Positions 1 through 59,439 of a DNA stretch of 59,439 nt are shown here, one piece after another. Source of the stretch: a virus (Duplodnaviria > Caudoviricetes). Where the stretch lies: positions 1-59,439 of the IMG/VR virus record IMGVR_UViG_3300037459_000125. One strand, 5' to 3'. Each line of letters opens with the position of its first letter. Position 1 is the stretch's first letter. The notes below the pieces were generated by a model. That model did not search any database and was not told the origin of the DNA. It saw nothing but the letters and a program-made list of their open reading frames with translations. The translations under genes were made by a program, and so were the position numbers.

Positions 1-127
1 GATGGGTGCTTCCATTACAGCCCGTACCTTCTCAGCCCAATGGTCAACGAGGAGATCGGGGACCTCCAGTAGAAAACTGTCGTGCATTTGAAGGATAATT
101 GGACAGTTTAGCAGGTCCAGCTCCCCC
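1..127. repeat. Terminal direct repeat, copy 1 (identical to 59313..59439); circular contig overlap
   Basis: Exact 127-bp identity of both ends; the PolA reading frame continues seamlessly across the join. Confidence 0.95.
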
Positions 128-1332
128 TGTCGTTGGTTCATCAGCAGCGCCCCGCCGAACTGCATCGGCAGGTTCTTCAACTCTCTATCCAACTCATGTC
201 CCCAGGGTTTGGCGATCCACCGTCGTGCCCCGAGGGGAGACTGGTAGTAGTGATTTCGCCTCACGAACTTGGCGGTCTCCTCTTGGAACTCCCGGACTCG
301 GTAGTGGATCCGATTCCACCGGACCCCCGCCTTTTTAATATCGGCCATCTTTAGTTTGAGGGTTTGGGGGACCTTGGTTTCGCAGAGAGGACATGGGCAG
401 AACAACCGCATTTTCATTGTCTCTGCGATACCACCGTAGCTCAGTCCGTAGAGGAAGCCTTTGGCGAAGTCTCGTGTCGGTTTATCCACCTCGGCCAGTC
501 CCACCCCAAAGAGATCGCTCCCATTTTGTCGATGAACGTCACCTCCGGACTCGAATACCTCGATAGACGGTCTATCGTTAGATAGATAAGCGAGGATCCT
601 AGCTTCCAACTGTGAGTAATCAGCTTGGAGGAATGTAAATCCGTCTTGTGATACGAAAACATGCCTAGCCTCCGGGGGGAACTGTTGAAGTGCAGGTTCA
701 GAGTAGCTGAACCTCATTGTCTTCGTACCGTACATCTTCACGTTGGCACGGACCCTACCGTCGGGGTCAGGTTCAAGGGTTAGGTATCTTTGGAGGATAG
801 TTTTGAGTCTACTGCGATGGAATAGAGCCTCAACCACTGGTCTGTGTCCTTCATCCTTCTTACGGAACCCTCGTAGTATTCGGTAAAGGCTCTCTTGGTC
901 AGTAGAATCTGCGCCTGTATCTGTCTTCTTCCCTGGTTTGAGTCCCAGTGTCCCGAATAAAAACTTACCCAACCTCTTCGAGCTTCCAATTCCGTTAGGG
1001 GACTTAGGAGTGGGGACCCGGAGTTCACCGGAGGTGTCGGCTTGGAGGATCGTATGGTCAGCATCATCGAGGTCGGAACGGACTTGCTTCCGATAGATCC
1101 GTAGGGCGTCGGTGTCCAAGAGAAGCCCGCGGGCCTGCATGTTAATGACGGCTGTCTGGAGGGGTTCCATAACCTGTAGAACGTAGTCGAGATTTCCTCG
1201 GGCTCGGAGTTCATCGAAGAGTGGCTTGACGAGGCGGGCTGTTTCGTATGAGTCTCTTGCATTATATACCCCCAAAATGGTTTCCGGCAGTTGCAAAAAT
1301 AGGTGGTTTGTGTTGACACTATACTTGCCCAC
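1..1332 (-). CDS. polA: Family A DNA polymerase (ExoIII motif plus polymerase domain), main part; about 472 aa in total, continuing across the origin to 59226. Missing from the ORF track
   Basis: Manual translation from GTG 1332: YNARD (ExoIII), GTKTMRFSYSEPALQQFP, motif A ADYSQLEARILA, motif B RDFAKGFLYGLSYG, motif C MHDS. Confidence 0.95.
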   Translation of the reverse strand, partial: MGKYSVNTNHLFLQLPETILGVYNARDSYETARLVKPLFDELRARGNLDYVLQVMEPLQTAVINMQARGLLLDTDALRIYRKQVRSDLDDADHTILQADTSGELRVPTPKSPNGIGSSKRLGKFLFGTLGLKPGKKTDTGADSTDQESLYRILRGFRKKDEGHRPVVEALFHRSRLKTILQRYLTLEPDPDGRVRANVKMYGTKTMRFSYSEPALQQFPPEARHVFVSQDGFTFLQADYSQLEARILAYLSNDRPSIEVFESGGDVHRQNGSDLFGVGLAEVDKPTRDFAKGFLYGLSYGGIAETMKMRLFCPCPLCETKVPQTLKLKMADIKKAGVRWNRIHYRVREFQEETAKFVRRNHYYQSPLGARRWIAKPWGHELDRELKNLPMQFGGALLMNQRQGELDLLNCPIILQMHDSFLLEVPDLLVDHWAEKVRAVMEAPI

Positions 1333-1967
1333 TATGCCTTCCCATCTCCTTCGTCTCCCTCGTCAGTCAGTCTCTTCCAGCAAGGCGCAAAGTTATAGAG
1401 TGTAGCACAGAATTGCAACCCTTTACTCATTTCTGGATAACAGGCGTGTTGGAGGTTCAGTGTGTCGATGAGTCTTCCTTTGACTTGGAACCCGAGTGCG
1501 TGGAGAATAGGGACATCATAGACAACTCCGTTATGAAAGACCTTCCCAAGTCGAGGGTTATCCAAAATACCGTAAAGCCAAGCCACAACAGTGAGCAACT
1601 CCACACGCGAACGCCAGTAAGTCCCTCCGCCACGGCGACGAAAACGAAGGCAGATAGTGCTCCCAATGTCCCCACTATCAATAGATAGCAAAGTAAACCC
1701 AATGCAAATGATGTGGGGCCCAGCATTCTCGATGTCGATTGAGACGGCATCATAGTCCTCCAACTTTAGGGTGAACTGTTCCAGATCCTTCAGACTTGGG
1801 AAGAGAATAGTATTAGGCGGAGCCCGAGAGACATCTATCTCCGGCATCGGAACCTTCCCCTTCACCAACTTCCCCAACCTCCGGAGGTAGGTCTCTTGGC
1901 AGGGTTCCTTGGACCACTGTCCGCGGACTATCGCACCCGGATGTTGAATGGGGGAGACGAGGGTCAT
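1332..1967 (-). CDS. UDG C-terminal fragment fused to PolA-type 3'-5' exonuclease ExoI/ExoII
   Basis: N-terminal VSPIQHPGAIVR (UDG HP motif); SIDIEN (ExoI), FHNGVVYD (ExoII), DTLNLQH; no ExoIII. Confidence 0.85.
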   Translation of the reverse strand: MTLVSPIQHPGAIVRGQWSKEPCQETYLRRLGKLVKGKVPMPEIDVSRAPPNTILFPSLKDLEQFTLKLEDYDAVSIDIENAGPHIICIGFTLLSIDSGDIGSTICLRFRRRGGGTYWRSRVELLTVVAWLYGILDNPRLGKVFHNGVVYDVPILHALGFQVKGRLIDTLNLQHACYPEMSKGLQFCATLYNFAPCWKRLTDEGDEGDGKA

Positions 1968-2413
1968 TAGTTAACTATCTCCTCCCACTCTCCACCGCGA
2001 GAGGTACACATCATTACAGCGTTGGTAGTATTGTTCACATAGATTTGACCCGTTGCCGTACAATCCGGTTCACTGTCACGTCTAAGCCTATCTAGGTATG
2101 GAATCTTACGTGCGTCCAAGCATGCCATGATCTTAGGGGCCCAACTAATGGGGGTGTTTCGGATCCAATCCTCAAGTTCTTCACCTTCCTTATTCCCAAG
2201 CTCGTCACACATCTCTTGATAGGTGACAGTTTGATGGCTGAAAACTCCGCGGGGAAGTTCCATTGGTTCTCCAGGCTTGGGGTCTCCACCCCGATCCACA
2301 AACGCCATCACCAGTAGACCCAACCCCAGACCGATTGGGGTTGTGATAAGAAAGAACCGTCGGACCCGGTCTCCCTTAGTGACTATTCCTTTGCTGGGAG
2401 GGACTCGGGTCAC
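1967..2413 (-). CDS. Single-pass membrane protein with Cys-paired C-terminal domain
   Basis: Basic N-terminus, hydrophobic helix, 4 Cys downstream. Confidence 0.7.
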   Translation of the reverse strand: MTRVPPSKGIVTKGDRVRRFFLITTPIGLGLGLLVMAFVDRGGDPKPGEPMELPRGVFSHQTVTYQEMCDELGNKEGEELEDWIRNTPISWAPKIMACLDARKIPYLDRLRRDSEPDCTATGQIYVNNTTNAVMMCTSRGGEWEEIVN

Positions 2414-2457
2414 CTCACACCTACTGTGCAGCCGCTACGCGACACACCGTCAGACAC

Positions 2458-2799
2458 TTAGAAAAGTCTCCCATACATACAGGCAAGGATCGAGGCCAGT
2501 TCTTTATCCTCATCGTTCCACATCCATGCCTCGAAAGCCTTAACATCTCGGGCGGGCATCTGCCGGATTGCCTCACAGGTTTCTTCGAGGGAGAGGACTG
2601 GGGGGGCGTAGAAGAGGTTGTTGGAAGTATCCACAACCCAAGTCCCCCCACTGTTCTCAATCAACTCCTCGTCGGCCTCAACCACCGCGGGCTCCGTCGG
2701 CTCAATCTCCACCACCCCCGAGATCATCCACATCGCCAACCCGACCACCACAAGGGCAATCACACCGAACCTCACCACGGACTTTGTATCTTGGTGCAT
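2458..2799 (-). CDS. Single-pass membrane protein, probable paralog of 1967..2413
   Basis: TM helix; shared C..E.W..N..I.AC pattern. Confidence 0.7.
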   Translation of the reverse strand: MHQDTKSVVRFGVIALVVVGLAMWMISGVVEIEPTEPAVVEADEELIENSGGTWVVDTSNNLFYAPPVLSLEETCEAIRQMPARDVKAFEAWMWNDEDKELASILACMYGRLF

Positions 2800-2802
2800 A
2801 AT

Positions 2803-3048
2803 CTAGGATTCCTCTTTGGTTGGTGGTGTGCAGACCCGGATCATTATACACTCCCCACTTTCGGGGGAGAAGGTTTCGTAGTCTGAAGGGGTATCTGTCC
2901 ATTTCCAGGTGGACTCGTCTATGTATGATTTCAGACCACCTTCGATAGGCTCGGGGTCCGGTGACACCAACCAAAGAACCCCGAACATCCCAGCCACTGC
3001 CGCGATGAAAATACAGAATCCTATTGCAGACTCAGGGTCTTTTGTCAC
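2803..3048 (-). CDS. Small single-pass membrane protein
   Basis: Hydrophobic N-terminal helix, C-terminal Cys pair. Confidence 0.6.
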   Translation of the reverse strand: MTKDPESAIGFCIFIAAVAGMFGVLWLVSPDPEPIEGGLKSYIDESTWKWTDTPSDYETFSPESGECIMIRVCTPPTKEES

Positions 3049-3217
3049 AATTTTATACCCCCCGTCGGGTAGGTGACACAGTTATCAGAATGGGGTCAAA
3101 GGAAAACTACAACGATGATGATCCCGATGATCGTCCCCATAATGAGGCCACCGCCTGCGCCACTCTGAGGATTCCAAAACTGCCATATAGGTGCCGTCGC
3201 TTTCGGATGCCAGCCCA

Positions 3218-3478
3218 TTACCGTCTCATCCTCCCTTCCCCCAGCAACAACCAATTCATATTGATCTTCTCCTTCCGAGCCAGGTGAATAAGGAAATCCG
3301 CATGGGGCGAGGTCCCACCGGACAAGTAGCGGCTGATGTTCTGCTGGGGGACACCCAGCTCCCGTCCCCACTGATGTTGGCTCCGGCCCCCGATGACGGT
3401 CCACATCCGATCACTAATGGCGGAGGTGTTCCGGCGGAGGGGTTTCAGGGACTTTCCGTTACCGTTCTTTTTGGGCAC
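3218..3478 (-). CDS. XRE/Cro-CI family HTH regulator
   Basis: SQHQWGRELGVPQQNISRYLSG..P and NMNWLLLGEG signature. Confidence 0.9.
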   Translation of the reverse strand: MPKKNGNGKSLKPLRRNTSAISDRMWTVIGGRSQHQWGRELGVPQQNISRYLSGGTSPHADFLIHLARKEKINMNWLLLGEGRMRR

Positions 3479-3653
3479 TGTTGACTCCTTTCAGGCACGC
3501 GGTTAGATTATGGCCGTTGGTTCGGGAAATACATAGTGTTTCAGGTGTGGAATAAGTGTTCATTCCGCATTGGCCGATCAACGTGCCGAGAATAAGAACC
3601 ACTGCGATAAAGGCCGCTGTAAAACATCTAGCCTCGTTTTGAATGTCGGACAT
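3459..3653 (-). CDS. Small membrane protein
   Basis: Hydrophobic helix, Cys pair, SD upstream. Confidence 0.55.
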   Translation of the reverse strand: MSDIQNEARCFTAAFIAVVLILGTLIGQCGMNTYSTPETLCISRTNGHNLTACLKGVNSAQKER

Positions 3654-3665
3654 GGGGGGCTACTC

Positions 3666-3995
3666 CTATTCAGGTTGGGCGGTTCCACAGATTCCGCACT
3701 TGTGGGGGTTGGACATCTTCCGCCCGCAATTCAGGCAGTTCCTCTGGTTCGGTTTAGTGGCGAGGGAGAAGGTCTTGGCCTCCACGATCTTCAGTCGGTG
3801 GTCGAGGTCATCCAGACACCGGCTGTGGTGTTCATACTGGGAGACCGTGGACTTGACGTGTTCGGTCAGGATCTCCATGTCCGCGCCGATCTTCTCTAGG
3901 CGTTCGAGAATGTCTCCGATGGGGCCTGGGAGGGTGGCCGGGACTTCTTTAGGGCCTACTACTTTAATCCTGTCTTCGTATACCTTTTCAGACAT
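3666..3995 (-). CDS. Coiled-coil protein with C-terminal zinc ribbon
   Basis: Heptad pattern; CLNC...CGIC. Confidence 0.7.
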   Translation of the reverse strand: MSEKVYEDRIKVVGPKEVPATLPGPIGDILERLEKIGADMEILTEHVKSTVSQYEHHSRCLDDLDHRLKIVEAKTFSLATKPNQRNCLNCGRKMSNPHKCGICGTAQPE

Positions 3996-4497
3996 CGTTC
4001 TCTCCCACTGGAGGTAGGTTTACCTCATTCATCGTTCCCATAAACTTCTCCGCTCCCTTATCCGGGTCAATTCCCAGAAGCCACTTAGCTGCTGGAACGC
4101 CCACTGGGACAACTACTCGGAGCGCAGCCGTCCCCTCCCCAGAGTGCAGCCACGGTCCCACATGAGCGTTCCAACAAAACTGTATCTCCGCTTGGGTCGG
4201 CTCCCGATTCCCGTTCCCGACTCCGTTCTTCTTGGTCTTTGGTAGCCAGCATTGGACGAGGTTCCCGAGGGAGATCTGAGTTCGGCTGATCCCGGACCGA
4301 TAGAGCCATTTGGTGAGCCTCTCCCCGATGGGAGCCTCGGGATAGAAGGGTTGGGAATTCCAAGCCTCCTGTTCTCCGGGGCCCTGACCTACGAGGACCA
4401 GTCCGGAACTGGCGGGTCCTGAGGGCGGCACGAAGCCGATTCCCCAAGAGTTCGCGGAACAGCCCTCGCAGGCTTTAGGGCGGGGGGAGTAGGTCAT
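3988..4497 (-). CDS. Family-4-like uracil-DNA glycosylase, N-terminal fragment lacking the HP motif
   Basis: CEGC, VGQGPGEQE..QPF, NLVQC, NREPT.AEI.FC, VPVG..A; four Fe-S-type Cys; start placed at ATG 4497. Confidence 0.88.
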   Translation of the reverse strand: MTYSPRPKACEGCSANSWGIGFVPPSGPASSGLVLVGQGPGEQEAWNSQPFYPEAPIGERLTKWLYRSGISRTQISLGNLVQCWLPKTKKNGVGNGNREPTQAEIQFCWNAHVGPWLHSGEGTAALRVVVPVGVPAAKWLLGIDPDKGAEKFMGTMNEVNLPPVGENDV

Positions 4498-4501
4498 TCC
4501 G

Positions 4502-4693
4502 CTAAACCTTTGGGTGTTCCATGTACTCAACAACTTGAGTTAAGTTTACTGTAACCATTACAATTCCACACTGATGAACATGATGATGGGAATCTTCAAG
4601 ATCTGCAACGGTCGGGAACACTTGACCCTCCACAACACCTAGACGGTCAAATTCCACCCAGCACATGAATCCCTCTTTTATCTTTTTATCCAT
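4502..4693 (-). CDS. Hypothetical protein
   Basis: Tiles the operon, SD-like sequence upstream. Confidence 0.5.
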   Translation of the reverse strand: MDKKIKEGFMCWVEFDRLGVVEGQVFPTVADLEDSHHHVHQCGIVMVTVNLTQVVEYMEHPKV

Positions 4694-4712
4694 CTCTAGC
4701 CCCCCCTAAACA

Positions 4713-4901
4713 CTACTCATTGGGAAGTTCCTCTTTCTTTTGGTTAAGCCAAAGTTCAACAAAACCTGCGGCAGCTTGGACTGACTCGTCATACGCAGCT
4801 TGGACAGCAGTGTCAACCGGGAAGTTGTCCCGGTTTCTCAAATAAATTCGATAGAAGAGTTCCCAGACTGGACCCCTATTAAGTTCACTGATGGGAATCA
4901 T
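4713..4901 (-). CDS. Hypothetical protein
   Basis: ATGA overlap with the upstream gene. Confidence 0.55.
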   Translation of the reverse strand: MIPISELNRGPVWELFYRIYLRNRDNFPVDTAVQAAYDESVQAAAGFVELWLNQKKEELPNE

Positions 4902-5380
4902 TCCTTCATCCTCTCTTCAATCCTCTTGGTCAGAGGAGTTGGGTTCGTATCTACTCCTCGGATATCCTTTGCGGACATCACAAGGACCGGGGCCCTGAAC
5001 TCTCGGTCCATCATCGAGACCCGCAGGGGCATACCGGTGTGGGAGCCGAAGATGACGTGGAGACCCAGCAATACCTCAGACCTATCAGTGGCCACCTCGC
5101 TGTCTTGGATTACCCCAATAGGTCCGGAGAGGTTGTTTTCGTATATGTGATCTCCGGCTAGGGGGCCAGCCGCAATAATATACCCAACCCCCATCTTCTC
5201 ATCGGACACAATGTAGTCGGGGATCTTGATTGGTCCGTACTCCTCCGGCGGGGGTTCCAAAAGAACGTGAACCAGATTCCCCGTCGGATGAATGGTGAGG
5301 ACATCCAAGCTGACGGCCTGCCCAGTCAACTCCAGGATATCGTGGGCCTTCATTATTTGGGCGTGCCAGAAATCGGACAT
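4898..5380 (-). CDS. groES: GroES/Cpn10-like co-chaperonin
   Basis: IHPTGNLVHV...IKIPD...GYIIAAGP...VIFGSHTG...VMSAKDIRGV; AAGGAG before ATG 5380. Confidence 0.8.
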   Translation of the reverse strand: MSDFWHAQIMKAHDILELTGQAVSLDVLTIHPTGNLVHVLLEPPPEEYGPIKIPDYIVSDEKMGVGYIIAAGPLAGDHIYENNLSGPIGVIQDSEVATDRSEVLLGLHVIFGSHTGMPLRVSMMDREFRAPVLVMSAKDIRGVDTNPTPLTKRIEERMKE

Positions 5381-5388
5381 CAGTCTCC

Positions 5389-5652
5389 TTAGGGTTCGGA
5401 AAACTCTTCCAGTTGATCTTTTGTCGGTTCCACAGCACCTAGATTTTTGAGCCATTCAACGAAGGTTATGTATTTTATGGGATTCTTGCTTTTGGGGCGA
5501 AGCCCATTTCTCGGTCTGTAATACACATCCTGATACCATTCCCGCCAATTCTGTGCCTCAACCTCAACCCCTACATTCTCGGGTAGAATCAGATGATCCA
5601 CACTGGCGTCCGCCCAGTCACCCCCACCGAGGATTGCTGTGATCTTAGGCAT
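5389..5652 (-). CDS. Hypothetical protein
   Basis: GAGGAG before ATG 5652. Confidence 0.6.
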   Translation of the reverse strand: MPKITAILGGGDWADASVDHLILPENVGVEVEAQNWREWYQDVYYRPRNGLRPKSKNPIKYITFVEWLKNLGAVEPTKDQLEEFSEP

Positions 5653-5705
5653 CTCTTCCTCCTCTGTACTCTCTATGCGAAGAAAGCCAGCACAGTGCGG
5701 GGCCA

Positions 5706-5990
5706 ATGCCCCCCGAGCCCGATAGGCCCAGGAGGGCTTTAGGTTCCGGCGCTACCGGATCCACTTCAACTAGAGTCCACCCGGGTGTCCTCTAGAAGCA
5801 TCAACCCCGGTCTCCCGGGGAACCAGTTCGGGGTGGGTCAGAGCTAGACCCCGAACAACTAGCGGGAGACCCCCGCCCCGTGGGCGATCTACACGGGTTC
5901 GCCATCTGGGGGAACTCCCGGGCCTTCCGGAAACTGCGGCTCACAGCCATCCGGACCTGCCAACTAAGGTGTTTCTCAACCCTGTTAGCT
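5706..5990 (-). ncRNA. Candidate structured RNA/ssDNA element (six or more tandem hairpins)
   Basis: Gene-free gap with stems CCCCGG-GAGA-CCGGGG, CTAGAG..CTCTAG, GTTCGGGGT..ACCCCGAAC, TCCGG..CCGGA, GCGGG..CCCGC. Confidence 0.5.
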
Positions 5991-5991
5991 T

Positions 5992-6441
5992 CTAAACCCC
6001 GAACACCTGAAGAAGCCGTCCCGTGTAGAACCGGTCCGTTGTCGGATCACCAGTGTTCTTTTTACTGGCCTGTTCATCACCGACTTCAACGCCACACATC
6101 AGACCGACTACCTGATCGGTATCATGGCGGAAGGTGTCGCCTTCTACCGCAACACCCATCCCGGTAAGCCAAGCCCCAAGTTTGGAACCAGAGTTTGCCC
6201 CAATGGGCTCGTGATGGAAGATGTCACAGGTTGGTCCACCGTTCTGTTTCACCCGAATCCGGATGAATGACCAGTCCTCTACGTTCTCTTTATCCTCTTG
6301 ATCCCAACCGGGTGTCTCATCGGCGGGGAACTGATAATCTACTACCTGACATTCGGCCTGATTGGTCTGACCCGGACCGTACATACCTCCGTGGAGGTAG
6401 GGACGCTTTTGGGCATCGGGGTGCATCTCAACAATAGGCAT
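5992..6441 (-). CDS. Putative ssDNA-binding protein (DUF669-like)
   Basis: Size, beta-rich pattern, KLGAWLTGMG..DTDQVVGLMCGVEV; sits downstream of the Sak4-like ATPase. Confidence 0.55.
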   Translation of the reverse strand: MPIVEMHPDAQKRPYLHGGMYGPGQTNQAECQVVDYQFPADETPGWDQEDKENVEDWSFIRIRVKQNGGPTCDIFHHEPIGANSGSKLGAWLTGMGVAVEGDTFRHDTDQVVGLMCGVEVGDEQASKKNTGDPTTDRFYTGRLLQVFGV

Positions 6442-7049: not shown

Positions 7050-7865
7050 TTAGCCAACCGGAGTCTCCTTCTTCTTATCCCACTCCTTCCTCAGAGTCGG
7101 GTAGTCCCCTGGGGTAATAGTGGGGAGGCCCCCTCCCTTACAGGTAATGAACGGATTGGGAGGAACCGAGTGGCAGATGAACTCCTTGGAGGGGATGAGT
7201 TTGGATCCACCACCCGGCTGGGGGACAGGTTGAGAGGAAATTTGAGCTTTGCAGTAGAGGACCGTGTCGATGTAAGCTTCGATCTCATCCTTGAACCGAC
7301 CGGAGATCATCGGGGATGTCTTGATGAGACCTCCCTTGTCGTCGGTGACATCCATCAGATGATAGTTGAAGACGATGTTGTAGGAGGGTTTACCCTCGAT
7401 GGGCGCTGCCGCAGAAGTGAGGTCGGCACAGATGGAGCGGAGTTTGTTGAGGATAACTCCCCAGTCAGGGATGGTGAGTTTGGGTTTGATCCCCTGGACA
7501 TCGTTGACAACCATCGCGGCCATACCGTCGATGGTATCTATGATGATTGTCTCGGCCTCGAACTCCCGATGGAGAACGGGGCGAACAAACTCATCCTCGA
7601 ACTCTTTGAGAGTATCGGGGAGGAATAGCTTGGCATCCAACCCACCCTTTATCAGATCCGAGATGGTCCCAAGGTTGCGGTCGAAGTAGGCCCACTTCTG
7701 CGGCCCGGGCCATGTGCTGGCATTGTGGGTCTTACCGGAGCCTGGATCACCTTTGTAGGCTATGGATTTCTTGGACTCGCCAAGGTTCTCGGCTGTTAGG
7801 ATCTTCACAGTGGGGGGCCTCCTCAGTGGTTGCATGGACGGTAACTCATTACTCAGAATTGTCAA
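7050..7865 (-). CDS. AAA_24/Sak4-like RecA-fold ATPase (ssDNA annealing)
   Basis: Walker A GDPGSGKT, Walker B IIIDT, YFDRN, PMISG..EAYIDTV. Confidence 0.85.
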   Translation of the reverse strand: MTILSNELPSMQPLRRPPTVKILTAENLGESKKSIAYKGDPGSGKTHNASTWPGPQKWAYFDRNLGTISDLIKGGLDAKLFLPDTLKEFEDEFVRPVLHREFEAETIIIDTIDGMAAMVVNDVQGIKPKLTIPDWGVILNKLRSICADLTSAAAPIEGKPSYNIVFNYHLMDVTDDKGGLIKTSPMISGRFKDEIEAYIDTVLYCKAQISSQPVPQPGGGSKLIPSKEFICHSVPPNPFITCKGGGLPTITPGDYPTLRKEWDKKKETPVG

Positions 7866-10657: not shown

Positions 10658-11067
10658 CCCAAAGCTCCCTCCCTCGCCCTAGCGTATCGTTTGGTGTTGA
10701 GGATTCGCTCGATTTGGTCGGCCTTTCGTGCCGGAGATTCCTCGTCTACGCCTAGACAAATTCGATTAGTCTCCCTTGCACTGAATCCGTAGAACTCTTG
10801 GAAATTACCCGCATAAACACTTAGTTGTCCGAACAGACCTTTCGGCCAAGTTTCGTAGTTCTGGATTGCTGCCCACCCGGCTACACAACAAGATGTACCA
10901 CATTTGAGAGCCTTTGTTGTAGTGGTTGGGTCATCGTGTTCGTGGATACCCCTAAATGTTCGTTTGGGATTGTAGGTCCACATCGCCAGATTCCTCTTCG
11001 GCAATCTCCGCATCAACCTCACCAACCGCATCGCATTCTTCCATTGTTTGGGCTTCATCCTGTCCAC
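10654..11067 (-). CDS. Conserved phage hypothetical protein
   Basis: CGTSCCVAGWA motif common in phage early genes. Confidence 0.65.
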   Translation of the reverse strand: MDRMKPKQWKNAMRLVRLMRRLPKRNLAMWTYNPKRTFRGIHEHDDPTTTTKALKCGTSCCVAGWAAIQNYETWPKGLFGQLSVYAGNFQEFYGFSARETNRICLGVDEESPARKADQIERILNTKRYARAREGALG

Positions 11068-12074
11068 TCCTTCATCTGATCCGTCTGCTCCTGAGTCCGC
11101 GGACGGAAAGTCTTAAGGTTCGCCTCTACTCGGTCTTTGTTCCGACAGAGGACTTGGAATTCGCATCCTCCATAGTTCTCGCAGGCTCCCGTTTTAGTAC
11201 CGTGGTCGGGGAACCAGCGGTTAATGGCTTCTTCCTCAGGGTATCCAGCATCGAGGTCATTAGAGAAACCTTCTGTTCGATGGTCAATTTGTTGTAGTAT
11301 GTCAAGCGCTGAAAGTCGAAAGGTGTTAAAATCGTGATGATCGCGTCGAGTGCTTTCTCGAATTGCGATCTTCGTCTTCCCCTTCTTAATGACAACATTA
11401 CACAGCACCCCATCTATTTGTTCTCCCGGAAACAGGGAGGCCAGAACGAAACACTCCCCAGTAAACTGGGAGTCAGTGTGGATGGCATTCAACCTCTTCT
11501 GCGCCCAGAACCCGGGGGCCGAGGTCTTGTGCTCCATCACCTTTGGGTATCCGTGGTGGTGGATCAGGAGATCTGCCCGACAGGTGAAAACGTAACCGCT
11601 GTTTGCGAGGTCCACCTTGAACTCCCTCTCGATTAGGGGCTCACCGGCCCCATCGTGCATAACACGGATGGTTGGATAGTCGGGGGCGGCTCCGTTGAGG
11701 CTGAACTGATCGTAGTAGGCGATAATCATTGAGGTTAGGAGGATCTTGTCCTCGTCGGCTTTCTCCTCGGAGGCGTAGCGGGAGACCGAGGAGGCATGGT
11801 GGATCTCTAGCTTTGCTACGGCCCGGTCCAAGTTCCACTCTCCGGTGTCTTCACCGTCCTGACAGCCGGAGAGATACAGCTCTGCGATGGCCTCGTGGAA
11901 GGTAGAGCCCTTAATCAAGTGTTCAGAGATGAACTGGGCTCGGATACCCTTGCTCCCCTCGAAAGGGCGGTAGTAGGAGTTGAACCACCGACGGGGACAG
12001 GTGGCGAAGGAGGAGAGGTAGGAGTTACCGACGAGGGAGCCACCCTTGGGATCATTTTCGGGGATGAATTTCAT
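11055..12074 (-). CDS. PD-(D/E)XK (RecB/Cas4-like) exonuclease
   Basis: SYLSSFATCPRR, GSTFHEA, IEREF, CRADLL...VMEHKT, C-terminal C...C.F..LC. Confidence 0.9.
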   Translation of the reverse strand: MKFIPENDPKGGSLVGNSYLSSFATCPRRWFNSYYRPFEGSKGIRAQFISEHLIKGSTFHEAIAELYLSGCQDGEDTGEWNLDRAVAKLEIHHASSVSRYASEEKADEDKILLTSMIIAYYDQFSLNGAAPDYPTIRVMHDGAGEPLIEREFKVDLANSGYVFTCRADLLIHHHGYPKVMEHKTSAPGFWAQKRLNAIHTDSQFTGECFVLASLFPGEQIDGVLCNVVIKKGKTKIAIRESTRRDHHDFNTFRLSALDILQQIDHRTEGFSNDLDAGYPEEEAINRWFPDHGTKTGACENYGGCEFQVLCRNKDRVEANLKTFRPRTQEQTDQMKEWTG

Positions 12075-12403
12075 TTCAATGCCGCCTCGAACTCTTTTTT
12101 AGGCCAGAACCACTTATCCTCAACAATATGACCGATAGCATCCACCCCACCATTGGTAGCTGATACCCGAATTGTTTTACCTTTCAGATCTTCCCACTTC
12201 CCAACCCCAACCACCTCAAGCACTCGCCAGATAAACAGGCCACAGAGGTTAGGCCCCTCACCTTGAGATTTGGGAGCATAGAGATTGTACCCACCAAATC
12301 CCTGCCCGGACCCACCATAATTAAGATGAACCCAAGCAGACAACAGCCCATGATCCTCGTTATTGATTGTTGCACTTATGATTACAGCGTTCTTCTCACC
12401 CAT
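12071..12403 (-). CDS. Conserved phage hypothetical protein
   Basis: EDHG..GSGQGFGGY..WEDLKGK..IGHIVEDKWF; GGAGG before MGEKN. Confidence 0.7.
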   Translation of the reverse strand: MGEKNAVIISATINNEDHGLLSAWVHLNYGGSGQGFGGYNLYAPKSQGEGPNLCGLFIWRVLEVVGVGKWEDLKGKTIRVSATNGGVDAIGHIVEDKWFWPKKEFEAALK

Positions 12404-12404
12404 C

Positions 12405-12752
12405 TCAAACCTCCGTCGCCTCACCCTTAAAGACTTTCTCACAAACCAGATCCACCAAGACATCAAGCTCCGGCTTGTCGAGGAAGTGTTCGATCTCCTC
12501 CGCGGTGGAGAATAGCCTGACCGAAGCCCGACCGGGGAAGTAAAGAATCAAGGTATGGATCTCGATCTCCGTGATCTCTGATTTGAACTTCCCTCGGTTC
12601 CCGTCGGCATCGGCTCCCCAGTTTTCATCATCGTAGGTTTGGACTTGGGCCTCTACCAAGATGGCCGAGTCCGCTGGGGGGAACAGTTCGAGTGTGTGTT
12701 CGACCTGGACGTTGTAGGTACGGTGGGAGTTCATCGAGTAACTCCTACCCAT
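12405..12752 (-). CDS. Hypothetical protein
   Basis: ENWGADADGNRG motif. Confidence 0.6.
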   Translation of the reverse strand: MGRSYSMNSHRTYNVQVEHTLELFPPADSAILVEAQVQTYDDENWGADADGNRGKFKSEITEIEIHTLILYFPGRASVRLFSTAEEIEHFLDKPELDVLVDLVCEKVFKGEATEV

Positions 12753-17426: not shown

Positions 17427-17889
17427 TAACTCACTTCAGAGTTAATACACCATCGGCCCCCAAGCGCAAGACCTTGAGGATAATAATCTAATAAACTTTC
17501 TAACAGACTTAGAGCCAATGGAAAGGTCTATTCTTTACTCAAGTTAGATAGACTTGGGGAGGGGGGCCAGTGTCCCCGGGGGGACTGTGTATGCAAGTGC
17601 TGTGCCAACCCCCCGTCCTCCCTACCCTGGGCTTGGATGGTGCGCCTCATGTGCTTGGGCTAGCCCGCATGCGGTGGGCTAATGTAAGATACCAACCGAC
17701 GAGGTGTAAGTTATTAACTTACACTCTGTCCCCCGGGGGACCAGTAAGGTCTAAGGAGTGCCTGTCTATCGAAGCCTTTGGAGTAGAAAGTAAAGTCCCC
17801 CACAGAGACTCTGGTACTGAACACCCTTCGGTCTCGTGGGAGAGAGTCTAGAGGAGGAGTACACAGTTCGGTGTCCCCCCAGATTCTTA

Positions 17890-17946
17890 TACTCCGACTT
17901 AACTTTAGGTGGTCGGAAGTTATAGGATTTGCTAACCTTTCGGCTC
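17890..17946 (+). repeat. 57-bp direct repeat copy 1 (copy 2 at 18653..18709), contains TGCTAACCT extended -10-like element
   Basis: One mismatch between copies. Confidence 0.85.
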
Positions 17947-17967
17947 CTTAGTCAGAGAGGTGTTCTA

Positions 17968-18083
17968 CTGTCCTGCCTCTCGGCCTAGACGTATGCGGCC
18001 ACGTATGGTTCTCCCGGACCTAAACCGACGGGGGCGACAAGCCGGATGCGTGACGAGGCGATTGTAAGCTTGGGGCAGGGCAG
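17968..18083 (+). ncRNA. Candidate small structured RNA
   Basis: 12-bp closing stem CTGTCCTGCCTC/GGGGCAGGGCAG with G.U pairs; nested CACGTAT/ATGCGTG and CTCCCG/CGGGGG. Confidence 0.45.
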
Positions 18084-18163
18084 CCGATAGTTTCTGTGTT
18101 ACAATAATTGGCGAGAGCCTTTCTACGGGAACCTCGCCGCGCCTTAACCTAGAGGACCATACG

Positions 18164-18340
18164 ATGAATGCGAATCCCACCGATACGACTTTAGACCTGC
18201 TAAACACAAGTACCGAGGAGGTCCAAAGGCTTAGAAAAGAGCTACTGGACTGGAAGACGGCGGTGGGTTACATCAAACTAATACTAAAGAGCACGACTGA
18301 TAACCTAGGCAATATCGAACAACCAGAAGGGCCAACCTAG
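18164..18340 (+). CDS. 58-aa hypothetical protein (below ORF-track cutoff)
   Basis: AGAGGA SD; MNANPTD..EVQRLRKEL. Confidence 0.5.
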   Translation: MNANPTDTTLDLLNTSTEEVQRLRKELLDWKTAVGYIKLILKSTTDNLGNIEQPEGPT

Positions 18341-18359
18341 CGGGGGCAGGGTAGTTGGC

Positions 18360-18435
18360 TCCCCGGTAGCTCAGTTGGTAGAGCTGCGCCCTGTTAAGGC
18401 GACGGTCGCAGGTTCGAGTCCTGCCCGGGGAGCCA
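18360..18435 (+). tRNA. tRNA-Asn (GTT), CCA encoded
   Basis: TCCCCGG/CCGGGGA acceptor, GCTC/GAGC D stem, CTGTTAA loop, GCAGG-TTCGAGT-CCTGC, GCCA. Confidence 0.95.
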
Positions 18436-18439
18436 ACCG

Positions 18440-18530
18440 TCCTTGACCCACCTTGAATATCAGGTACACTATCCGATACTCAGGCTCTAACTGTCTGAAT
18501 CTTCTAGCTTTCCCGGCCCCTGGGGGACCC
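18440..18530 (+). promoter_or_regulatory. Duplicated promoter cassette copy 1 (TTGACC-16-TACACT); copy 2 at 18807..18904
   Basis: 42-bp and 24-bp exact blocks shared between the copies. Confidence 0.7.
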
Positions 18531-18652
18531 CATCCCACCAAGTTTCCATCTGTCAGAAAATACCCCTACTTTGTTTTCAGTTTTGTCAATGGGGACGGGG
18601 AGTTAGAGTGGTGGGATGAGGGAAGGGACGCCCCGCGGGGACCAAACTCTTC

Positions 18653-18709
18653 TACTCTGACTTAACTTTAGGTGGTCGGAAGTTATAGGATTTGCTAACC
18701 TTTCGGCTC
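18653..18709 (+). repeat. 57-bp direct repeat copy 2
   Basis: Matches 17890..17946. Confidence 0.85.
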
Positions 18710-18806
18710 GATAGGCACCAAATACTCCCGCTTCGCAAACGCCAGCAGACGGCGGGGATGATGAGTGTCAAGGGATCGGGGTGTCGCTGCCCTGTCCCAC
18801 GCTCCC

Positions 18807-18904
18807 TCCTTGACCCACCTTGAATATCAGGTACACTATCCGATACTCCGAGGCCAACTCCTCGGATCTTCTAGCTTTCCCGGCCCCTGTCCCCTGGGGG
18901 ACCC
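18807..18904 (+). promoter_or_regulatory. Duplicated promoter cassette copy 2
   Basis: Matches 18440..18530; precedes AGGAGGT SD. Confidence 0.7.
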
Positions 18905-19369: not shown

Positions 19370-19601
19370 CCGCCCCCTCCCAAAGCTCTCCTCCAAAGCC
19401 AACATCTGTGTGCTCTGTGGGTACCCGCTACCTACCAAGACCCCCACGGGGGCCACAGCAGTAATGCAGTACCTAAAGACAGAGGAGTGTGAAGCTGTCA
19501 GTCCTGAAGCCTCAGCCCTGATCTGTACGCGAGAGCCGGGGCACCGAGGCAAGCACGCCGCCTGTGGTTTCATCGCCCATCCGTCGGACTCTTGGAAGTG
19601 A
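19362..19601 (+). CDS. Small Cys/His-rich protein
   Basis: CVLC; CTREPGHRGKH. Confidence 0.6.
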   Translation: MTDRPLPKLSSKANICVLCGYPLPTKTPTGATAVMQYLKTEECEAVSPEASALICTREPGHRGKHAACGFIAHPSDSWK

Positions 19602-20353
19602 AGAACACCAGACCGGAGCCCAAACTAAGCTCGAAGGATATCCTCATCTGGGACATCGAGACCAGCCCAAACCTCGTCTTCTCCTGGGGAATCGGCCACA
19701 AGGTCTCCATCTCCTTCGAGAACATCTACCGCGAACGGGCAATCACGTGCATAGCCTGGAAGATCCTGGGCAAGTCGAGGGTCTACTCCCTGAACTGGGA
19801 CCAGAACCACTGCGACAAGGAGATGATCGACACCTTTATAGGTCACTTGAACAACTGCCGCTACTCGGTGGCCCACAACGGGGACCGGTTCGATCTCCGA
19901 TGGCTCCGGGGCAGGGCCATGTTCCACCGGCTAGGGATGTGGCCGGAATACACCAGCGTAGATACCTTGAAGATCTTCCGGAAGCTGGCCTACCTGAACT
20001 CCTATCGGCTCGACTACCTCCTCCAATACTTTGGATTCGGCCGGAAGATCAAGGTGGACTATGATCTCTGGAAACGGGTATTCGCGGGTGAGGCCAAAGC
20101 CCTCCAGGAGATGATCCGCTATAACCGTAAGGATGTCGTGGCCTTAGAGGAACTCTACACCTTCGTCCGTCAGTATATGAGTCCTGTAGACTCTCTGACC
20201 AAGAGCTGCCGAACCTGCCCCCACTGCGCCAGTGAGAAGTTCCAGCGTAAACACCACCGGTTCACCAAGGCTGGAGGTGAGAAGATCCAACTCCAGTGTG
20301 ATGCCGGTCACTATTGGACTGTGACCGCTAGCCGGTTTTTTAGGGAGAGGTGA
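19598..20353 (+). CDS. RNase H-like DEDD (DnaQ/PolB-type) exonuclease with C-terminal zinc ribbon
   Basis: WDIETSP, AHNGDRFD, VDTLK, YNRKDV, CPHC. Confidence 0.9.
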   Translation: MKNTRPEPKLSSKDILIWDIETSPNLVFSWGIGHKVSISFENIYRERAITCIAWKILGKSRVYSLNWDQNHCDKEMIDTFIGHLNNCRYSVAHNGDRFDLRWLRGRAMFHRLGMWPEYTSVDTLKIFRKLAYLNSYRLDYLLQYFGFGRKIKVDYDLWKRVFAGEAKALQEMIRYNRKDVVALEELYTFVRQYMSPVDSLTKSCRTCPHCASEKFQRKHHRFTKAGGEKIQLQCDAGHYWTVTASRFFRER

Positions 20354-55600: not shown

Positions 55601-55907
55601 CGGGTTGTGGACTGATGCGATGGGTCAGATCCGCTACGGTAACCTTGCGGGATTCATCCTGGGACCTACCTTCTCTGACTTAAACCAAGTGGGGGAGGCG
55701 CTTCTGTCCCCGCAGGGAGGCTCCATTTGGGACATCATCAAGCGCCAACCCCTCTACCAGACCACGAACTTCCTAATGGGAGCCGCAGCGGAGACTGGGA
55801 GCACAGCCGATGAGTATCTGGACGCGCTTGGTGCAGGCGATGACGGCGCTGTCACTCGGGTTGACGTGGGCGAGCGCCTCACCGAACGAATCCGCAGCAA
55901 GCGATAG
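52695..55907 (+). CDS. Large internal virion/ejection protein
   Basis: 1070 aa helical; KTQF..P..GRVLFQFKTF..GP..S motif. Confidence 0.7.
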   Translation: MVTRLTEKDRNDAGSGDSLFDSTVSSLASFGKGLGQGVKQDPFVALALKELSEIPGVDPDGFRQVVEYADNSTSAQVGRFIGEFGPTLLFGIPLAGVGAVGGRLAIRGIAKQLATKAALQDIKTAAGRGALTRSAASGAAGKTATAESTFLKGKLGQVQRKAGDTNEALLAGRKPSIQGNPVLQRSSESAGANLAFSSLTVAQEKARGKSDVEALKTGGLVLAFGAGIDVALVGGARLLFPGARTVDLDSIRSRYIRSNAPEKLNAISRVRKGRIQEINEAVTAELNTEAQVLDLTVSRASAGKAIDIPVVGQTLGENATNAQRLRQILKGEGPGGALAAKRVKELLAEKRGLKTIIKSTDEAIAAEGTQPYIGRGVGYFTPVQDFWDKVDPSGSFRVKWTSAAESLFGKAGSVGNRIGTQLVRAVTHMEQLGKTAEVNYSLWSDATRKAMGASQREWKNGIGKNLNSAHAWETGGEAGLRRYMKEEIGRSSDDIETAVAAFKARKEFEWDLYQVQGRKIGGKDAIDMESVGLKEYLTHSSLDLPEDDLVKLLVKNKGMTKAEAMEVIRANKSHLDPVPAEGVASGSPARTGPLDFDRFGKGSTRDKILNDTIPMNPNVWDSGLRTAQAAQRRIALHPILGDFTAGERGRVFGGTIDELVKAVEAESGMVTANKFRTLLESIAGRTYYNESMRKIAVATTSIQVATKLPMAVLANASQAILTTTWTGIRASLKGAIAITNKANREHYAQALAVHEHIIRGIGRSVDSEGLALTSFEKAADWVLRFSGFSRVERFNRIHAAAASQVAIRDKLVRAAAGRLRGNTLDSSRKMLGELGLDLGSLARDLNRMGDEAFFSSARYLRLETDAVIRGAQKTQFFPGRLRTPSAWSSPVGRVLFQFKTFSTGQSRFFRDAVLNEWSAGNVVPMATLLSFSPIAGELVADGRAIIKDKNRGENGIARYIDNATAIGGLGLWTDAMGQIRYGNLAGFILGPTFSDLNQVGEALLSPQGGSIWDIIKRQPLYQTTNFLMGAAAETGSTADEYLDALGAGDDGAVTRVDVGERLTERIRSKR

Positions 55908-56250
55908 CCTCCCGATCCTCGGGCAGAAGCAAGAACTCTTCTCCCGACTTCTCCCCCGGCTCATAGACAAGGCTCACTCCCTGGGCTTCGAGGTTCGGCT
56001 GAAGGAACTCCAACGCCCCGAGGAGATGGCGGAGATCTATAGCGAACGGGGAATGGGTGTCTCCAACTCCCTACACCTCTCTGGCCTTGCGATTGATTTA
56101 GTGCTATTCAAGAGGGGTCAGCCGTTAGTTGACACCGCTGATTACCTAGAGCTTGGTGAGTTCTGGGAAAGTCTGGACATCCTATGTGCCTGGGGTGGCA
56201 GATTCGGAGACGGTGGTCACTTCTCTGTCAAACATAGAGGGTACAAATAG
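55810..56250 (+). CDS. Endolysin, M15 (L-Ala-D-Glu-type) peptidase with predicted signal peptide
   Basis: R..SLH..GLAID..WGGRF.DGGHFS; N-terminus MSIWTRLVQAMTALSLGLTWASA|S. Confidence 0.88.
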   Translation: MSIWTRLVQAMTALSLGLTWASASPNESAASDSLPILGQKQELFSRLLPRLIDKAHSLGFEVRLKELQRPEEMAEIYSERGMGVSNSLHLSGLAIDLVLFKRGQPLVDTADYLELGEFWESLDILCAWGGRFGDGGHFSVKHRGYK

Positions 56251-57618: not shown

Positions 57619-59244
57619 TTAGACCAGTGCCCGCTCGGGGACTTCAAGTCCTGCGATCCCATACCAAGTACCTCCCTTCCCATTAGGGTAAACTTGCAAA
57701 CTCCCAGTATCCAAGAGATCCTTTATGATCTCATGTCTCTTCTTCAACTCCCACTTCCGGAACCTCTGAGCATAGGTCCGCTTCGTGCTCCACCCTCCCT
57801 GAGAATTTAGCCAACCCAGCACCTCCCGACACTTTAAGGCGTCGTCAGTCTCATTGGCCTGAGCCATGAACAACGGTATGAACTCAAGCTCAGCCTCGAC
57901 GATGCCGATAGCCTGTTTCATAGTGGCGGTCTGGATGTAGGGGAGGTCTTCACCCTCGGAGATGGCGAGGATCGAGGCGAGGCGGAGGATGTGAATGCAG
58001 CGGCGGTCTAGGGTATGTTTCTCGGCCTCTGTCAGATCCCGGGGAATCTTACCGGCCTCCCGCATCCACCATCCGTGGAAGAACTCGTCGCACTCCTCAG
58101 TGATCCGCATCACCTTCGGGCGGTCCAAGCTGTAGCATAGAAAGATCAGTTCCTCCGCCAACCTCTCGGCCTGGAGGGGATCTAGGATGGGGATCCGAAG
58201 GAAGGAATACTTACGGTTGGACGGGGGTCGGTAGATGAAATTCACCCGCTCGATGAACCCACCTTCCTTGGCGTCGGAGCTGATGGTGTTCCGCATCCAT
58301 CCCGGCTGGGTGCAAGCTAGGATACTGAAGGCCATCCTCCAAATATCCTCCTGCCCACCGGTCTTGGTGGACTTGTGGTACTCGGCACCGAAGCCTAGCT
58401 GGGTAAGGAGGGGGATCATCAGGCCCGCTCCGAACTTGGCCGAGCCTGCGGTGTTGGACAGCTCATCCGAGAACATGATCGCTACGGCCTCTCCGTCCTT
58501 GGGTTGCTCGACCATGTTCCCCGGGGGGAGGACGGACCGGGGCTTCGCGGAGAGGACGGAGAGTTGTTTAGTCAAGTCCTGGGGGGTGATGTCACTGGCG
58601 ATGAAGGGGATCTTGAAGGCATCGGTGTTGGGCTTGGACAGGACTCCCGTGGTTTCCATGTCATCAAACCTCCGGTTCATCCGAGTAAGGACATCTTGGG
58701 CAACTTCCATTGCGACTGTCTTACCGTTTCCCTTCGGGCCCGCGAGGACTATGAATTGGCTTAGCCAGATTCGGGCGACGTTGTTATCTACGTAGTAGTT
58801 TCGTCGGATCGCGGCTCCCAGGATAGAAGCCCCGGCCCAGAAGTGGAGAGCCAACGGTACTTTGTTCCATCGTGCATACTCAAGGTAACGTCCCAACCAA
58901 CCGCTAGACGGATAGATGTCTTCTCCAGGATCACAGACGTATCCCGCATAGTCGCTTGTTCTGACTCGGAGCGCCCTTTGAACATCTTCTCCGCTCGGTA
59001 GGTTAAGTATTCTTCTAAGGCACTGTTGTGGGTTCTGGTTCTCTCTCGTCCTCGGGAAAAGAAGCGCATACCTTTGAAGAAGGAGCCCTTGGTCCTCTTT
59101 TGATAACTCTTTCCATCCGTGTCGGAGTTCATTGGCCAGTTCCTCCTGTGCGTAGTCGTCCCGGTCGAAACTCTCTTGATCCCTACTGATCTGAATTGCA
59201 CGCTGTTCGAGTTCAGCGTTGGAGCTTAGTCCAGTGGACTCCAC
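57619..59244 (-). CDS. DUF3987-like P-loop helicase
   Basis: GWLGRY..P..HFW, LAGPKGNGKT, FSDEL, ILACTQP, GGFIER; start overlaps the polA stop. Confidence 0.82.
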   Translation of the reverse strand: MESTGLSSNAELEQRAIQISRDQESFDRDDYAQEELANELRHGWKELSKEDQGLLLQRYALLFPRTRENQNPQQCLRRILNLPSGEDVQRALRVRTSDYAGYVCDPGEDIYPSSGWLGRYLEYARWNKVPLALHFWAGASILGAAIRRNYYVDNNVARIWLSQFIVLAGPKGNGKTVAMEVAQDVLTRMNRRFDDMETTGVLSKPNTDAFKIPFIASDITPQDLTKQLSVLSAKPRSVLPPGNMVEQPKDGEAVAIMFSDELSNTAGSAKFGAGLMIPLLTQLGFGAEYHKSTKTGGQEDIWRMAFSILACTQPGWMRNTISSDAKEGGFIERVNFIYRPPSNRKYSFLRIPILDPLQAERLAEELIFLCYSLDRPKVMRITEECDEFFHGWWMREAGKIPRDLTEAEKHTLDRRCIHILRLASILAISEGEDLPYIQTATMKQAIGIVEAELEFIPLFMAQANETDDALKCREVLGWLNSQGGWSTKRTYAQRFRKWELKKRHEIIKDLLDTGSLQVYPNGKGGTWYGIAGLEVPERALV

Positions 59245-59439
59245 TTCTTGAGGCTCCCCCAGTTCTTGCCGGTCTCGATGTCGGCAGGAATTGACACCCC
59301 ATTCAGGCCATCGATGGGTGCTTCCATTACAGCCCGTACCTTCTCAGCCCAATGGTCAACGAGGAGATCGGGGACCTCCAGTAGAAAACTGTCGTGCATT
59401 TGAAGGATAATTGGACAGTTTAGCAGGTCCAGCTCCCCC
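59226..59439 (-). CDS. polA: C-terminal end of the family A DNA polymerase
   Basis: ...QMHDSFLLEVP...IPADIETGKNWGSLKKWSPLD*; in frame with 1..1332 after collapsing the repeat (1419 nt in total). Confidence 0.93.
   Translation of the reverse strand, partial: GELDLLNCPIILQMHDSFLLEVPDLLVDHWAEKVRAVMEAPIDGLNGVSIPADIETGKNWGSLKKWSPLD
59313..59439. repeat. Terminal direct repeat, copy 2
   Basis: Identical to 1..127. Confidence 0.95.

Follow-up and report, generated by a model that had tools for sequence, protein, structure and literature searches.

Fusions joining a uracil-DNA glycosylase (UDG) to a family A DNA polymerase (PolA) are described for N4-like, SPO1-like and SP15-like phages, with cryo-electron microscopy for YerA41/phiLo (PMC10201439, PMC13697223). 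An active fused UDG can excise deoxyuridine ahead of the replication fork (PMC13697223). The fission of a T7-like PolA into an exonuclease gene and a polymerase gene, found in S-SBP1-like phages, was reported as a first in a paper of 2023 (Czernecki et al. 2023, PMC10201439); its authors presume reassembly of the pieces, with an AlphaFold2 complex as support, and no translational frameshift is involved. The present study concerns a UDG-exonuclease-PolA replicase in the IMG/VR virus record IMGVR_UViG_3300037459_000125 (Duplodnaviria; Caudoviricetes), the whole 59,439-nt stretch being referred to as the window. This replicase is encoded by three open reading frames (ORFs) on the minus strand, named UDG-N, EXO and POL. 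In our assessment the arrangement is likely to represent an old, selected fission of the phage replicase into three co-directional genes, the products of which presumably reassemble.

The three genes and the positions of the breaks

UDG-N (3988..4497, minus strand, 169 aa) is a family-4 UDG without the last strand. The ORF spans 3988..4533, with the likely start at ATG 4497, which is used by gene callers as well as by the homologs. The Pfam UDG model scores 50.2 bits (the cut-off being 24.3), with a match confined to positions 1-102 of the 141 in the profile. NCBIfam UDG_fam4 yields 44.7 bits, under its cut-off of 125, Arch_udg matches below cut-off as well, and the PDB profile match covers residues 8-132 of 205 of 1ui0 (E 6e-18). 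The protein, with the C-terminus ...FMGTMNEVNLPPVGENDV, terminates in a hairpin just ahead of the strand leading to the His-Pro (HP) motif. Among its 43 homologs (136-233 aa), all 18 of alignment A2 share this end point after the hairpin strand. C10, C13, C83, and C108, which we take to be the Fe-S cluster ligands of family 4, are invariant among the 18 UDG-N sequences of A2. Motif A, for which the family-4 criterion is GE(A/G)PG, reads GQGPG in the window and in 32 of the 43 homologs, and GEGPG in 1ui0.

The missing part of the UDG fold is found at the start of EXO (1332..1967, minus strand, 211 aa), a putative bridging protein delimited by homologs, motifs, and alignment A1. Its N-terminus, MTLVSPIQHPGAIVRGQW, opens a segment of about 30 residues in which the final strand of the UDG is followed by the HP motif and a helix, and the remainder of the protein forms the exonuclease fold. 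The HP motif (His-Pro of motif B) occupies residues 9-10 and is located on another polypeptide than UDG-N. EXO carries ExoI (DIE) and ExoII (HNGVVYD), lacks ExoIII, and ends 13 residues past a conserved WK with a conserved acidic tail (...WK.L.DE.DE.GK[AG]). The Pfam exo1 model scores 17.2 bits, under the cut-off of 23.6.

ExoIII (YNARD) is located at residues 23-27 of POL, ahead of the family A polymerase domain (Pfam DNA_pol_A, 151 bits). POL starts with GTG at 1332-1330, in a 1-base overlap with the EXO stop codon TAG at 1334-1332 and preceded by a GGAG-like sequence. Residues 1-444 of its 472 are encoded by 1..1332 (minus strand), where the polymerase ORF appears to be truncated. This truncation did not hold: the record is circularly closed, and the ORF runs over the terminal repeat and continues at 59312..59226, where the C-terminal 28 codons and the stop codon are situated (59226..59312, minus strand). 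The window's own 472-aa product is also present among the protein representatives as P0259 (in the tree, counts, and alignments, L denotes related loci and P protein representatives). Otherwise, the gene-level claims of the original prediction, which was made from the letters alone, agree with these observations: the UDG ORF halting just short of the HP strand, the HP motif opening ORF 1332..1967, the presence of ExoI and ExoII and absence of ExoIII therein, and a polymerase ORF with YNARD that begins by a 1-nt TAG/GTG overlap behind a Shine-Dalgarno sequence.

UDG, exonuclease, and polymerase occur in a single ORF in the distant relatives MW202489 (779 aa), L007 (824 aa), and L008 (857 aa). 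The three proteins of the window match these intact relatives in order and in one frame, and the alignment to intact UDG-PolA homologs that had been proposed as a check shows that the fragments align end to end with them. The three-piece pattern is not due to chance, as every piece can be matched in one frame to relatives with an intact gene. In contiguous relatives the Pfam UDG match extends across the HP segment as far as profile positions 125-132, and in L008 that of the exonuclease model includes ExoIII and reaches position 172 of 173; in the window both end where the breaks are.

To locate the breaks in the folds, intact L007 was modelled with AlphaFold2 (mean pLDDT 84, pTM 0.84); the underlying alignment contained 31 rows, split pieces included, and break positions were taken via alignment A4. 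The exonuclease and polymerase part of this model resembles the Klenow and Bst large fragments (TM-score ~0.78, target-normalised). Break 1, between UDG-N and EXO, maps to loop 143-158, which is partly of low confidence, between strand 139-142 and the core strand 159-162, which is followed by the HP motif (167-168). For break 2, between EXO and POL, the corresponding loop is 339-350, with helix 330-338 on one side and the long ExoIII helix (351-378) on the other. According to these modelled positions, both breaks are located at loops inside domains, as had been claimed for the catalytic domains: the first lies in the UDG fold before the HP strand and the second in the DEDDy exonuclease fold between ExoII and ExoIII.

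Conservation, selection, and history of the breaks

Both ends of EXO recur in its relatives. In a word-indexed search 63 EXO homologs were retrieved, most of them 200-250 aa in length with full coverage and with identities down to ~40%. The 19 EXO sequences of A1 (206-247 aa, covering 98-100% of the query) are conserved at both termini, with the N-terminal pattern P.I.HP..I.RGQW. An exhaustive HMMER search with EXO gave 1138 matches at E up to 1e-3, and the break positions were tallied for the best 150 representatives of 50%-identity clusters. At the C-terminus, 146 of these end within a few residues of the window EXO end, three run on (one of them, P0175, extends into a polymerase), and one is truncated. 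As to the N-terminus, the HP break is the starting point of 90 representatives, mostly at -3 to +11 residues from it and in ten cases with 17-41 extra residues; 46 have an extension, in which a match to UDG-N could be detected in 28 cases, and the other 14 are classed as N-terminal fragments. The exonuclease break is far commoner than the UDG break.

The polymerase piece is similarly uniform. Its best 120 homologs are 273-518 aa in length and 42-80% identical, and those of full length (446-518 aa) share one start point; among these 120, no homolog longer than 518 aa was found, although lengths up to 777 aa were searched. Y23, N24, and D27 of ExoIII are invariant in the POL alignment A3. The same breakpoints, which were to be looked for in relatives, are thus common to more than 100 diverged proteins from several sources, and they are conserved across a large uncultured phage clade.

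This recurrence bears on the suspicion that the split is an artefact, i.e., an assembly or sequencing indel, or the decay of a dying polymerase gene in a defective phage. In favour of such an origin, the DNA of the record was located in a single metagenome, one marine-sediment run (X1), which is probably its source sample. Yet the assembled Logan contigs of X1 are identical to the record over 1-4600 at a depth of ~15, and the record carries a 127-nt exact terminal direct repeat (1-127 = 59313-59439), which makes it a genome of 59,312 nt that is closed or circularly permuted. Moreover, ratios of nonsynonymous to synonymous substitution rates (dN/dS) are well below 1. By the Nei-Gojobori method, dN/dS is 0.18 for EXO versus L010, the only unsaturated pair (dS 0.57), and 0.07-0.15 in 11 further pairs of a piece and a metagenome locus. 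Due to the breakpoints shared by so many diverged proteins in addition, we regard artefact or decay as most improbable.

All three pieces are under purifying selection. Apart from the dN/dS values, which are far from 1, the four cysteines of UDG-N and the Y, N, and D of ExoIII are kept, and the histidine of the HP motif is retained in 145 of 165 scorable homologs (171 were examined, of which 6 are without any motif), namely in 109 of 128 split and 36 of 37 fused forms. The claim that the motifs persist by selection rather than decay is in good agreement with these data.

With respect to the history of the split, a quick maximum-likelihood tree of the EXO segment was calculated with 118 rows, leaving out representatives that do not cover query residues 12-195 and adding intact L007 and L008. 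On this tree the state of the exonuclease break changes 3 times and that of the UDG break 16 times, compared to 33-37 times in five of 200 label shuffles. Since the root was placed on the intact forms for drawing, the tree itself gives no direction of change. In our reading, the exonuclease break is old and nearly fixed in the clade. The UDG break forms clusters but is labile, unless the noise of the tree and of the start-codon calls is too high for such a statement.

Several relatives deviate from the common pattern. In L001 (MW202554) the split is situated after ExoIII, between 1727-2986 and 3138-4364 with a gap of 150 nt, and due to this other position fission has occurred more than once in this polymerase lineage. 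The fused proteins P0070, P0077, and P0091 combine UDG and ExoI/II with a linker of 75-105 residues at break 1, of low complexity in P0070, as if an old gap was read through. In further fused forms, for instance P0097 and P0105, the sequence is contiguous at break 1.

Among viral contigs, the single EXO protein as query returned no close relatives, and an alignment as query returned five. Among contigs of prokaryote genomes, none was found with A1 and two were found with A3. The latter, L031 (the same contig as L005) and L032, of 33 kb and 54 kb, are binned into metagenome-assembled genomes labelled Halobacteriovorax sp. and Desulfobacteraceae bacterium, which may be a weak hint at the hosts or a binning artefact.

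Gaps between the pieces and their presumed reassembly

UDG-N, EXO, and POL were found as separate genes in the window, L005/L031, L006, L013, L016, and L032. The DNA separating them varies from 0 to ~6 kb and contains unrelated small genes. In the window, gap 1 between UDG-N and EXO comprises 2.0 kb with about six plausible small ORFs that cover 1967-3995; of the predicted distance of 2 kb and about seven genes, the length is therefore retained and the number of genes is to be lowered to about six. Elsewhere, the length of gap 1 is 0.2 kb (L005), 0.6-1.15 kb (seven closer loci and L032) or 6.1 kb (L006). At gap 2, EXO and POL overlap in the window and L016; the distance between them is 6 nt in L005 and about 80-650 nt in seven other loci, of which six were inspected and carry unrelated small ORFs.

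Two of the genes in gap 1 of the window recur in relatives. The first (3666..3995, minus strand, 109 aa) overlaps the UDG-N stop codon, has a C-terminal CxxC...CxxC, and is without a Pfam or PHROGs match. The second (3218..3478, minus strand, 86 aa) encodes a CI-like helix-turn-helix (HTH) regulator (Pfam Phage_CI_repr, 8e-8, and HTH_3; PHROG transcriptional repressor). Homologs of both are present in gap 1 of all seven metagenome loci with UDG-N and EXO; the CI-like HTH gene is situated in gap 1 of L013, L016, L019, L021, L027, L029, and L030, and upstream of EXO in L015. The three remaining small ORFs (2803-3048, 2458-2799, and 1967-2413, minus strand), each with a hydrophobic N-terminal stretch, matched no Pfam or PHROG family and have no homolog in the gaps of the relatives; they are cargo specific to the window.

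In other loci the gaps hold further genes. Gap 2 of L018 contains a sigma-70 region-4-like protein (662-895), and gap 2 of L006, 2 kb in length, a PD-(D/E)XK nuclease (11522-12598). An Lcl_C-domain protein is encoded in gap 1 of L006 (5591-6574), and in L026 an Endonuclease_7 (HNH) gene (285-818) is located 280 nt upstream of EXO. The gaps probably go back to the integration of mobile or accessory genes, or such integration made use of them at a later time. Excision via flanking repeats was considered for gap 1. The sole repeat near its borders, 15 nt with an 87% match (1878-1892 and 4005-4019), lies inside two ORFs in different frames and was rejected as a chance match.

The pieces could be joined into one polypeptide by split inteins, by the removal of a self-splicing intron, or by programmed frameshifting at the TAG/GTG junction. 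That EXO and POL overlap by 1 nt in the window and that an HNH gene lies just upstream of EXO in L026 would fit such a scheme, and precedents exist in phage polymerase genes interrupted by introns or homing endonucleases (PMC10580990) and in intein-fractured genes (PMC2677866). Against it, no piece contains an intein or Hint domain of Pfam, the tails past the conserved folds amount to only ~10-20 residues, Rfam gave no match in 1-4700 at E up to 1, the gaps are filled by co-directional ORFs, and every piece begins with a start codon of its own, the position of which is conserved. A conserved frameshift site is not possible due to the range of gap 2 from an overlap to 2 kb. We consider joining very unlikely, and the statement of the original prediction that intein and intron hallmarks are absent stands for the Pfam intein and Rfam intron searches of 1-4700.

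We favour a fission in which the separate chains would associate non-covalently. UDG-N, EXO, and POL would reassemble by fragment complementation into a heterotrimer bridged by EXO: with its N-terminal ~30 residues, EXO would complete the UDG fold begun by UDG-N, and the first ~60 residues of POL, with the ExoIII helix, would complete the exonuclease fold begun by EXO. Either function, uracil handling or proofreading, would then require a composite site formed by two chains. In a complex prediction of POL, EXO, and UDG-N, with UDG-N as the partner, a control with an unrelated protein in place of POL came within 0.20 of the score of the real complex, so that by the rule of the tool the prediction counts neither for nor against binding.

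Several observations weigh against a selected three-gene fission with reassembly of all pieces. Glycosylase activity of the predicted enzyme is uncertain due to the Gln in motif A, compared to GEGPG in 1ui0. The histidine of the HP motif is absent in 20 of the 165 scorable homologs (11 with Ser, 4 with Asp, and others), and in L026, which lacks it and reads SP instead, no UDG-N was found in the 1.1 kb upstream. Synonymous sites are saturated in most pairs, and 4 of the 16 pairs gave no dN/dS value (pS > 0.75). A single clean origin of the UDG break is not supported, with at least 16 changes on the tree, and some of the "split" labels may reflect start-codon calls. Furthermore, the DNA is known from one sequencing run, which may be its own source.

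The loss of the histidine, the lack of UDG-N upstream of EXO in L026, and the kilobases between the pieces in the window and in L006 would also agree with a reassembly of EXO and POL only. UDG-N would then be independent and perhaps non-catalytic, and the HP segment a remnant with a role in the exonuclease or in the interface to the polymerase; for N4-like UDG-PolAs, the UDG domain is likewise described as inactive and maybe structural (PMC10201439). Speaking against this, the N-terminal 30 residues rank among the best conserved of EXO, with P6, P10, I13, Q24, and R30 invariant and G16, W18, and Y27 nearly so, and UDG-N retains the Fe-S cysteines and motif A at a dN/dS of ~0.1. In addition, UDG-N is situated upstream in 12 of 12 contigs with a His-bearing EXO and enough upstream sequence (those named being the window, L005, L006, L013, L016, L019, L021, L027, L029, L030, and L032, with L005 and L031 taken as one), and to judge from the fold model a UDG lacking a core strand would hardly be stable alone. 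As a general explanation, the reassembly of EXO and POL only seems improbable to us; a live alternative is that the pairing of UDG-N with EXO has been lost in some lineages.

If all three pieces reassemble, as we prefer, it is tempting to speculate that the fission serves as a device by which the make-up of the replicase (polymerase alone, with exonuclease, or with UDG as well) is tuned via subunit supply and coupled to the regulatory state. The two-chain composite sites, the conservation of both gaps as slots, and a gap 1 that in the closer relatives always holds the CI-like regulator and the Cys-rich protein led us to this idea, which we consider rather doubtful. If true, replication fidelity or uracil handling would be coupled to the regulatory state of the phage.

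Genome context and comparison with known systems

The minus strand carries the genes across 1-17 kb of the window. The downstream neighbour of POL (57619..59244, minus strand, 541 aa) is primase/helicase-like, with matches to PHROG DNA primase/helicase families, and such a gene follows POL in every related locus long enough to show it. Further genes on the minus strand encode an AAA_24 ATPase (7050-7865) and a PD-(D/E)XK nuclease (11055-12074). On the plus strand, a stand-alone 253-aa protein (19592-20353) gives RNase_H_2 and PolB-exonuclease-like matches and thus represents a second 3'-5' exonuclease-like gene of this phage besides the split one, and a Peptidase_M15_4 protein (55810-56250) is a likely endolysin. 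For several large ORFs on the plus strand (588-896 aa), Pfam returned no match. A switch in both gene orientation and AT skew occurs at 17879-18889, where two interleaved repeat families are located, one of 86 nt (copies 87% identical, 367 nt apart) and one of 76 nt (copies 91% identical, 763 nt apart); this region may be an origin or a divergent promoter region. A promoter and terminator scan of 1-6000 revealed nothing exceeding shuffled controls. Genes for T-hypermodification, which would link the phage to SP15-like UDG-PolA phages, were not found among 10 large ORFs scanned.

The locus would represent a natural case of fragment complementation in which a family-4 UDG and a DEDDy exonuclease are both cut within the fold, conserved across a large phage clade, and in which one small protein would feed both composite sites. 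It is also of relevance for annotation: EXO and UDG-N are currently annotated as "hypothetical" or "UDG family 4", and phages in which only the polymerase is called would be misread as lacking proofreading. The breaks could moreover serve as practical split sites for the engineering of split polymerases.

Other phage replication enzymes are also encoded in pieces: gp43 of T4-like phages occurs in split form, and NrdA of Aeh1 is split by a homing endonuclease. These cases and the family B polymerase of PhiKZ, which is a two-chain complex of DNAP-N and DNAP-C (PMC13648687), resemble the window in that an essential replication enzyme is present as separate chains in a stable complex, with the insertion of mobile genes as a known cause. 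In contrast, they belong to other enzyme families, consist of two pieces each, and include neither a UDG fold nor a subunit bridging two sites. Split polymerase genes were also noted in genomes of marine cyanophages and OM43 phages (10.1101/325100, PMC10580990). The fractured genes from environmental DNA are phage-like replication genes in two parts with a gene between the halves (Dassa et al. 2009, PMC2677866); the halves carry split inteins and are ligated by trans-splicing, whereas the pieces in the window are without intein sequence.

The nearest relatives of the window set are UDG-PolAs and not T7-like polymerases, and its relation to the described UDG-PolA fusions is distant (match to the PDB chain 9qhs_A, "putative DNA-directed DNA polymerase I", at E 8e-5). 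With these fusions it shares the order of family-4 UDG, 3'-5' exonuclease, and PolA; these are, however, single polypeptides, in contrast to three ORFs with their own starts and stops. A cultured phage with a related arrangement is Caulobacter phage Kuura (OQ067476, genes 029 and 026), where the break is likewise situated between ExoII and ExoIII, ExoIII opens the polymerase gene, and the tail of the exonuclease piece extends to WK+14, compared to WK+13 in the window. Different from the window, the UDG of Kuura is unsplit and forms with ExoI/II one 369-aa protein, which is annotated as hypothetical and shows ~25% identity to the window EXO, and two small ORFs lie in the exonuclease/polymerase gap.

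A search of full-text literature, with subscription journals and supplements outside its scope, returned no split UDG fold, no break between ExoII and ExoIII, and no three-gene UDG-PolA. The S-SBP1 type is similar in that a phage family A polymerase is split into adjacent co-directional exonuclease and polymerase genes; it comprises two pieces from a T7-like cluster without a UDG, and the break is described as one that parts the exonuclease from the polymerase domain. Here, by comparison, three pieces are present, the break between ExoII and ExoIII is located inside the fold so that ExoIII travels with the polymerase, a second break is situated in the UDG fold, and cargo genes occur in both gaps. 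The locus thus adds a three-piece, within-domain architecture to the published exonuclease/polymerase fission of PolA.

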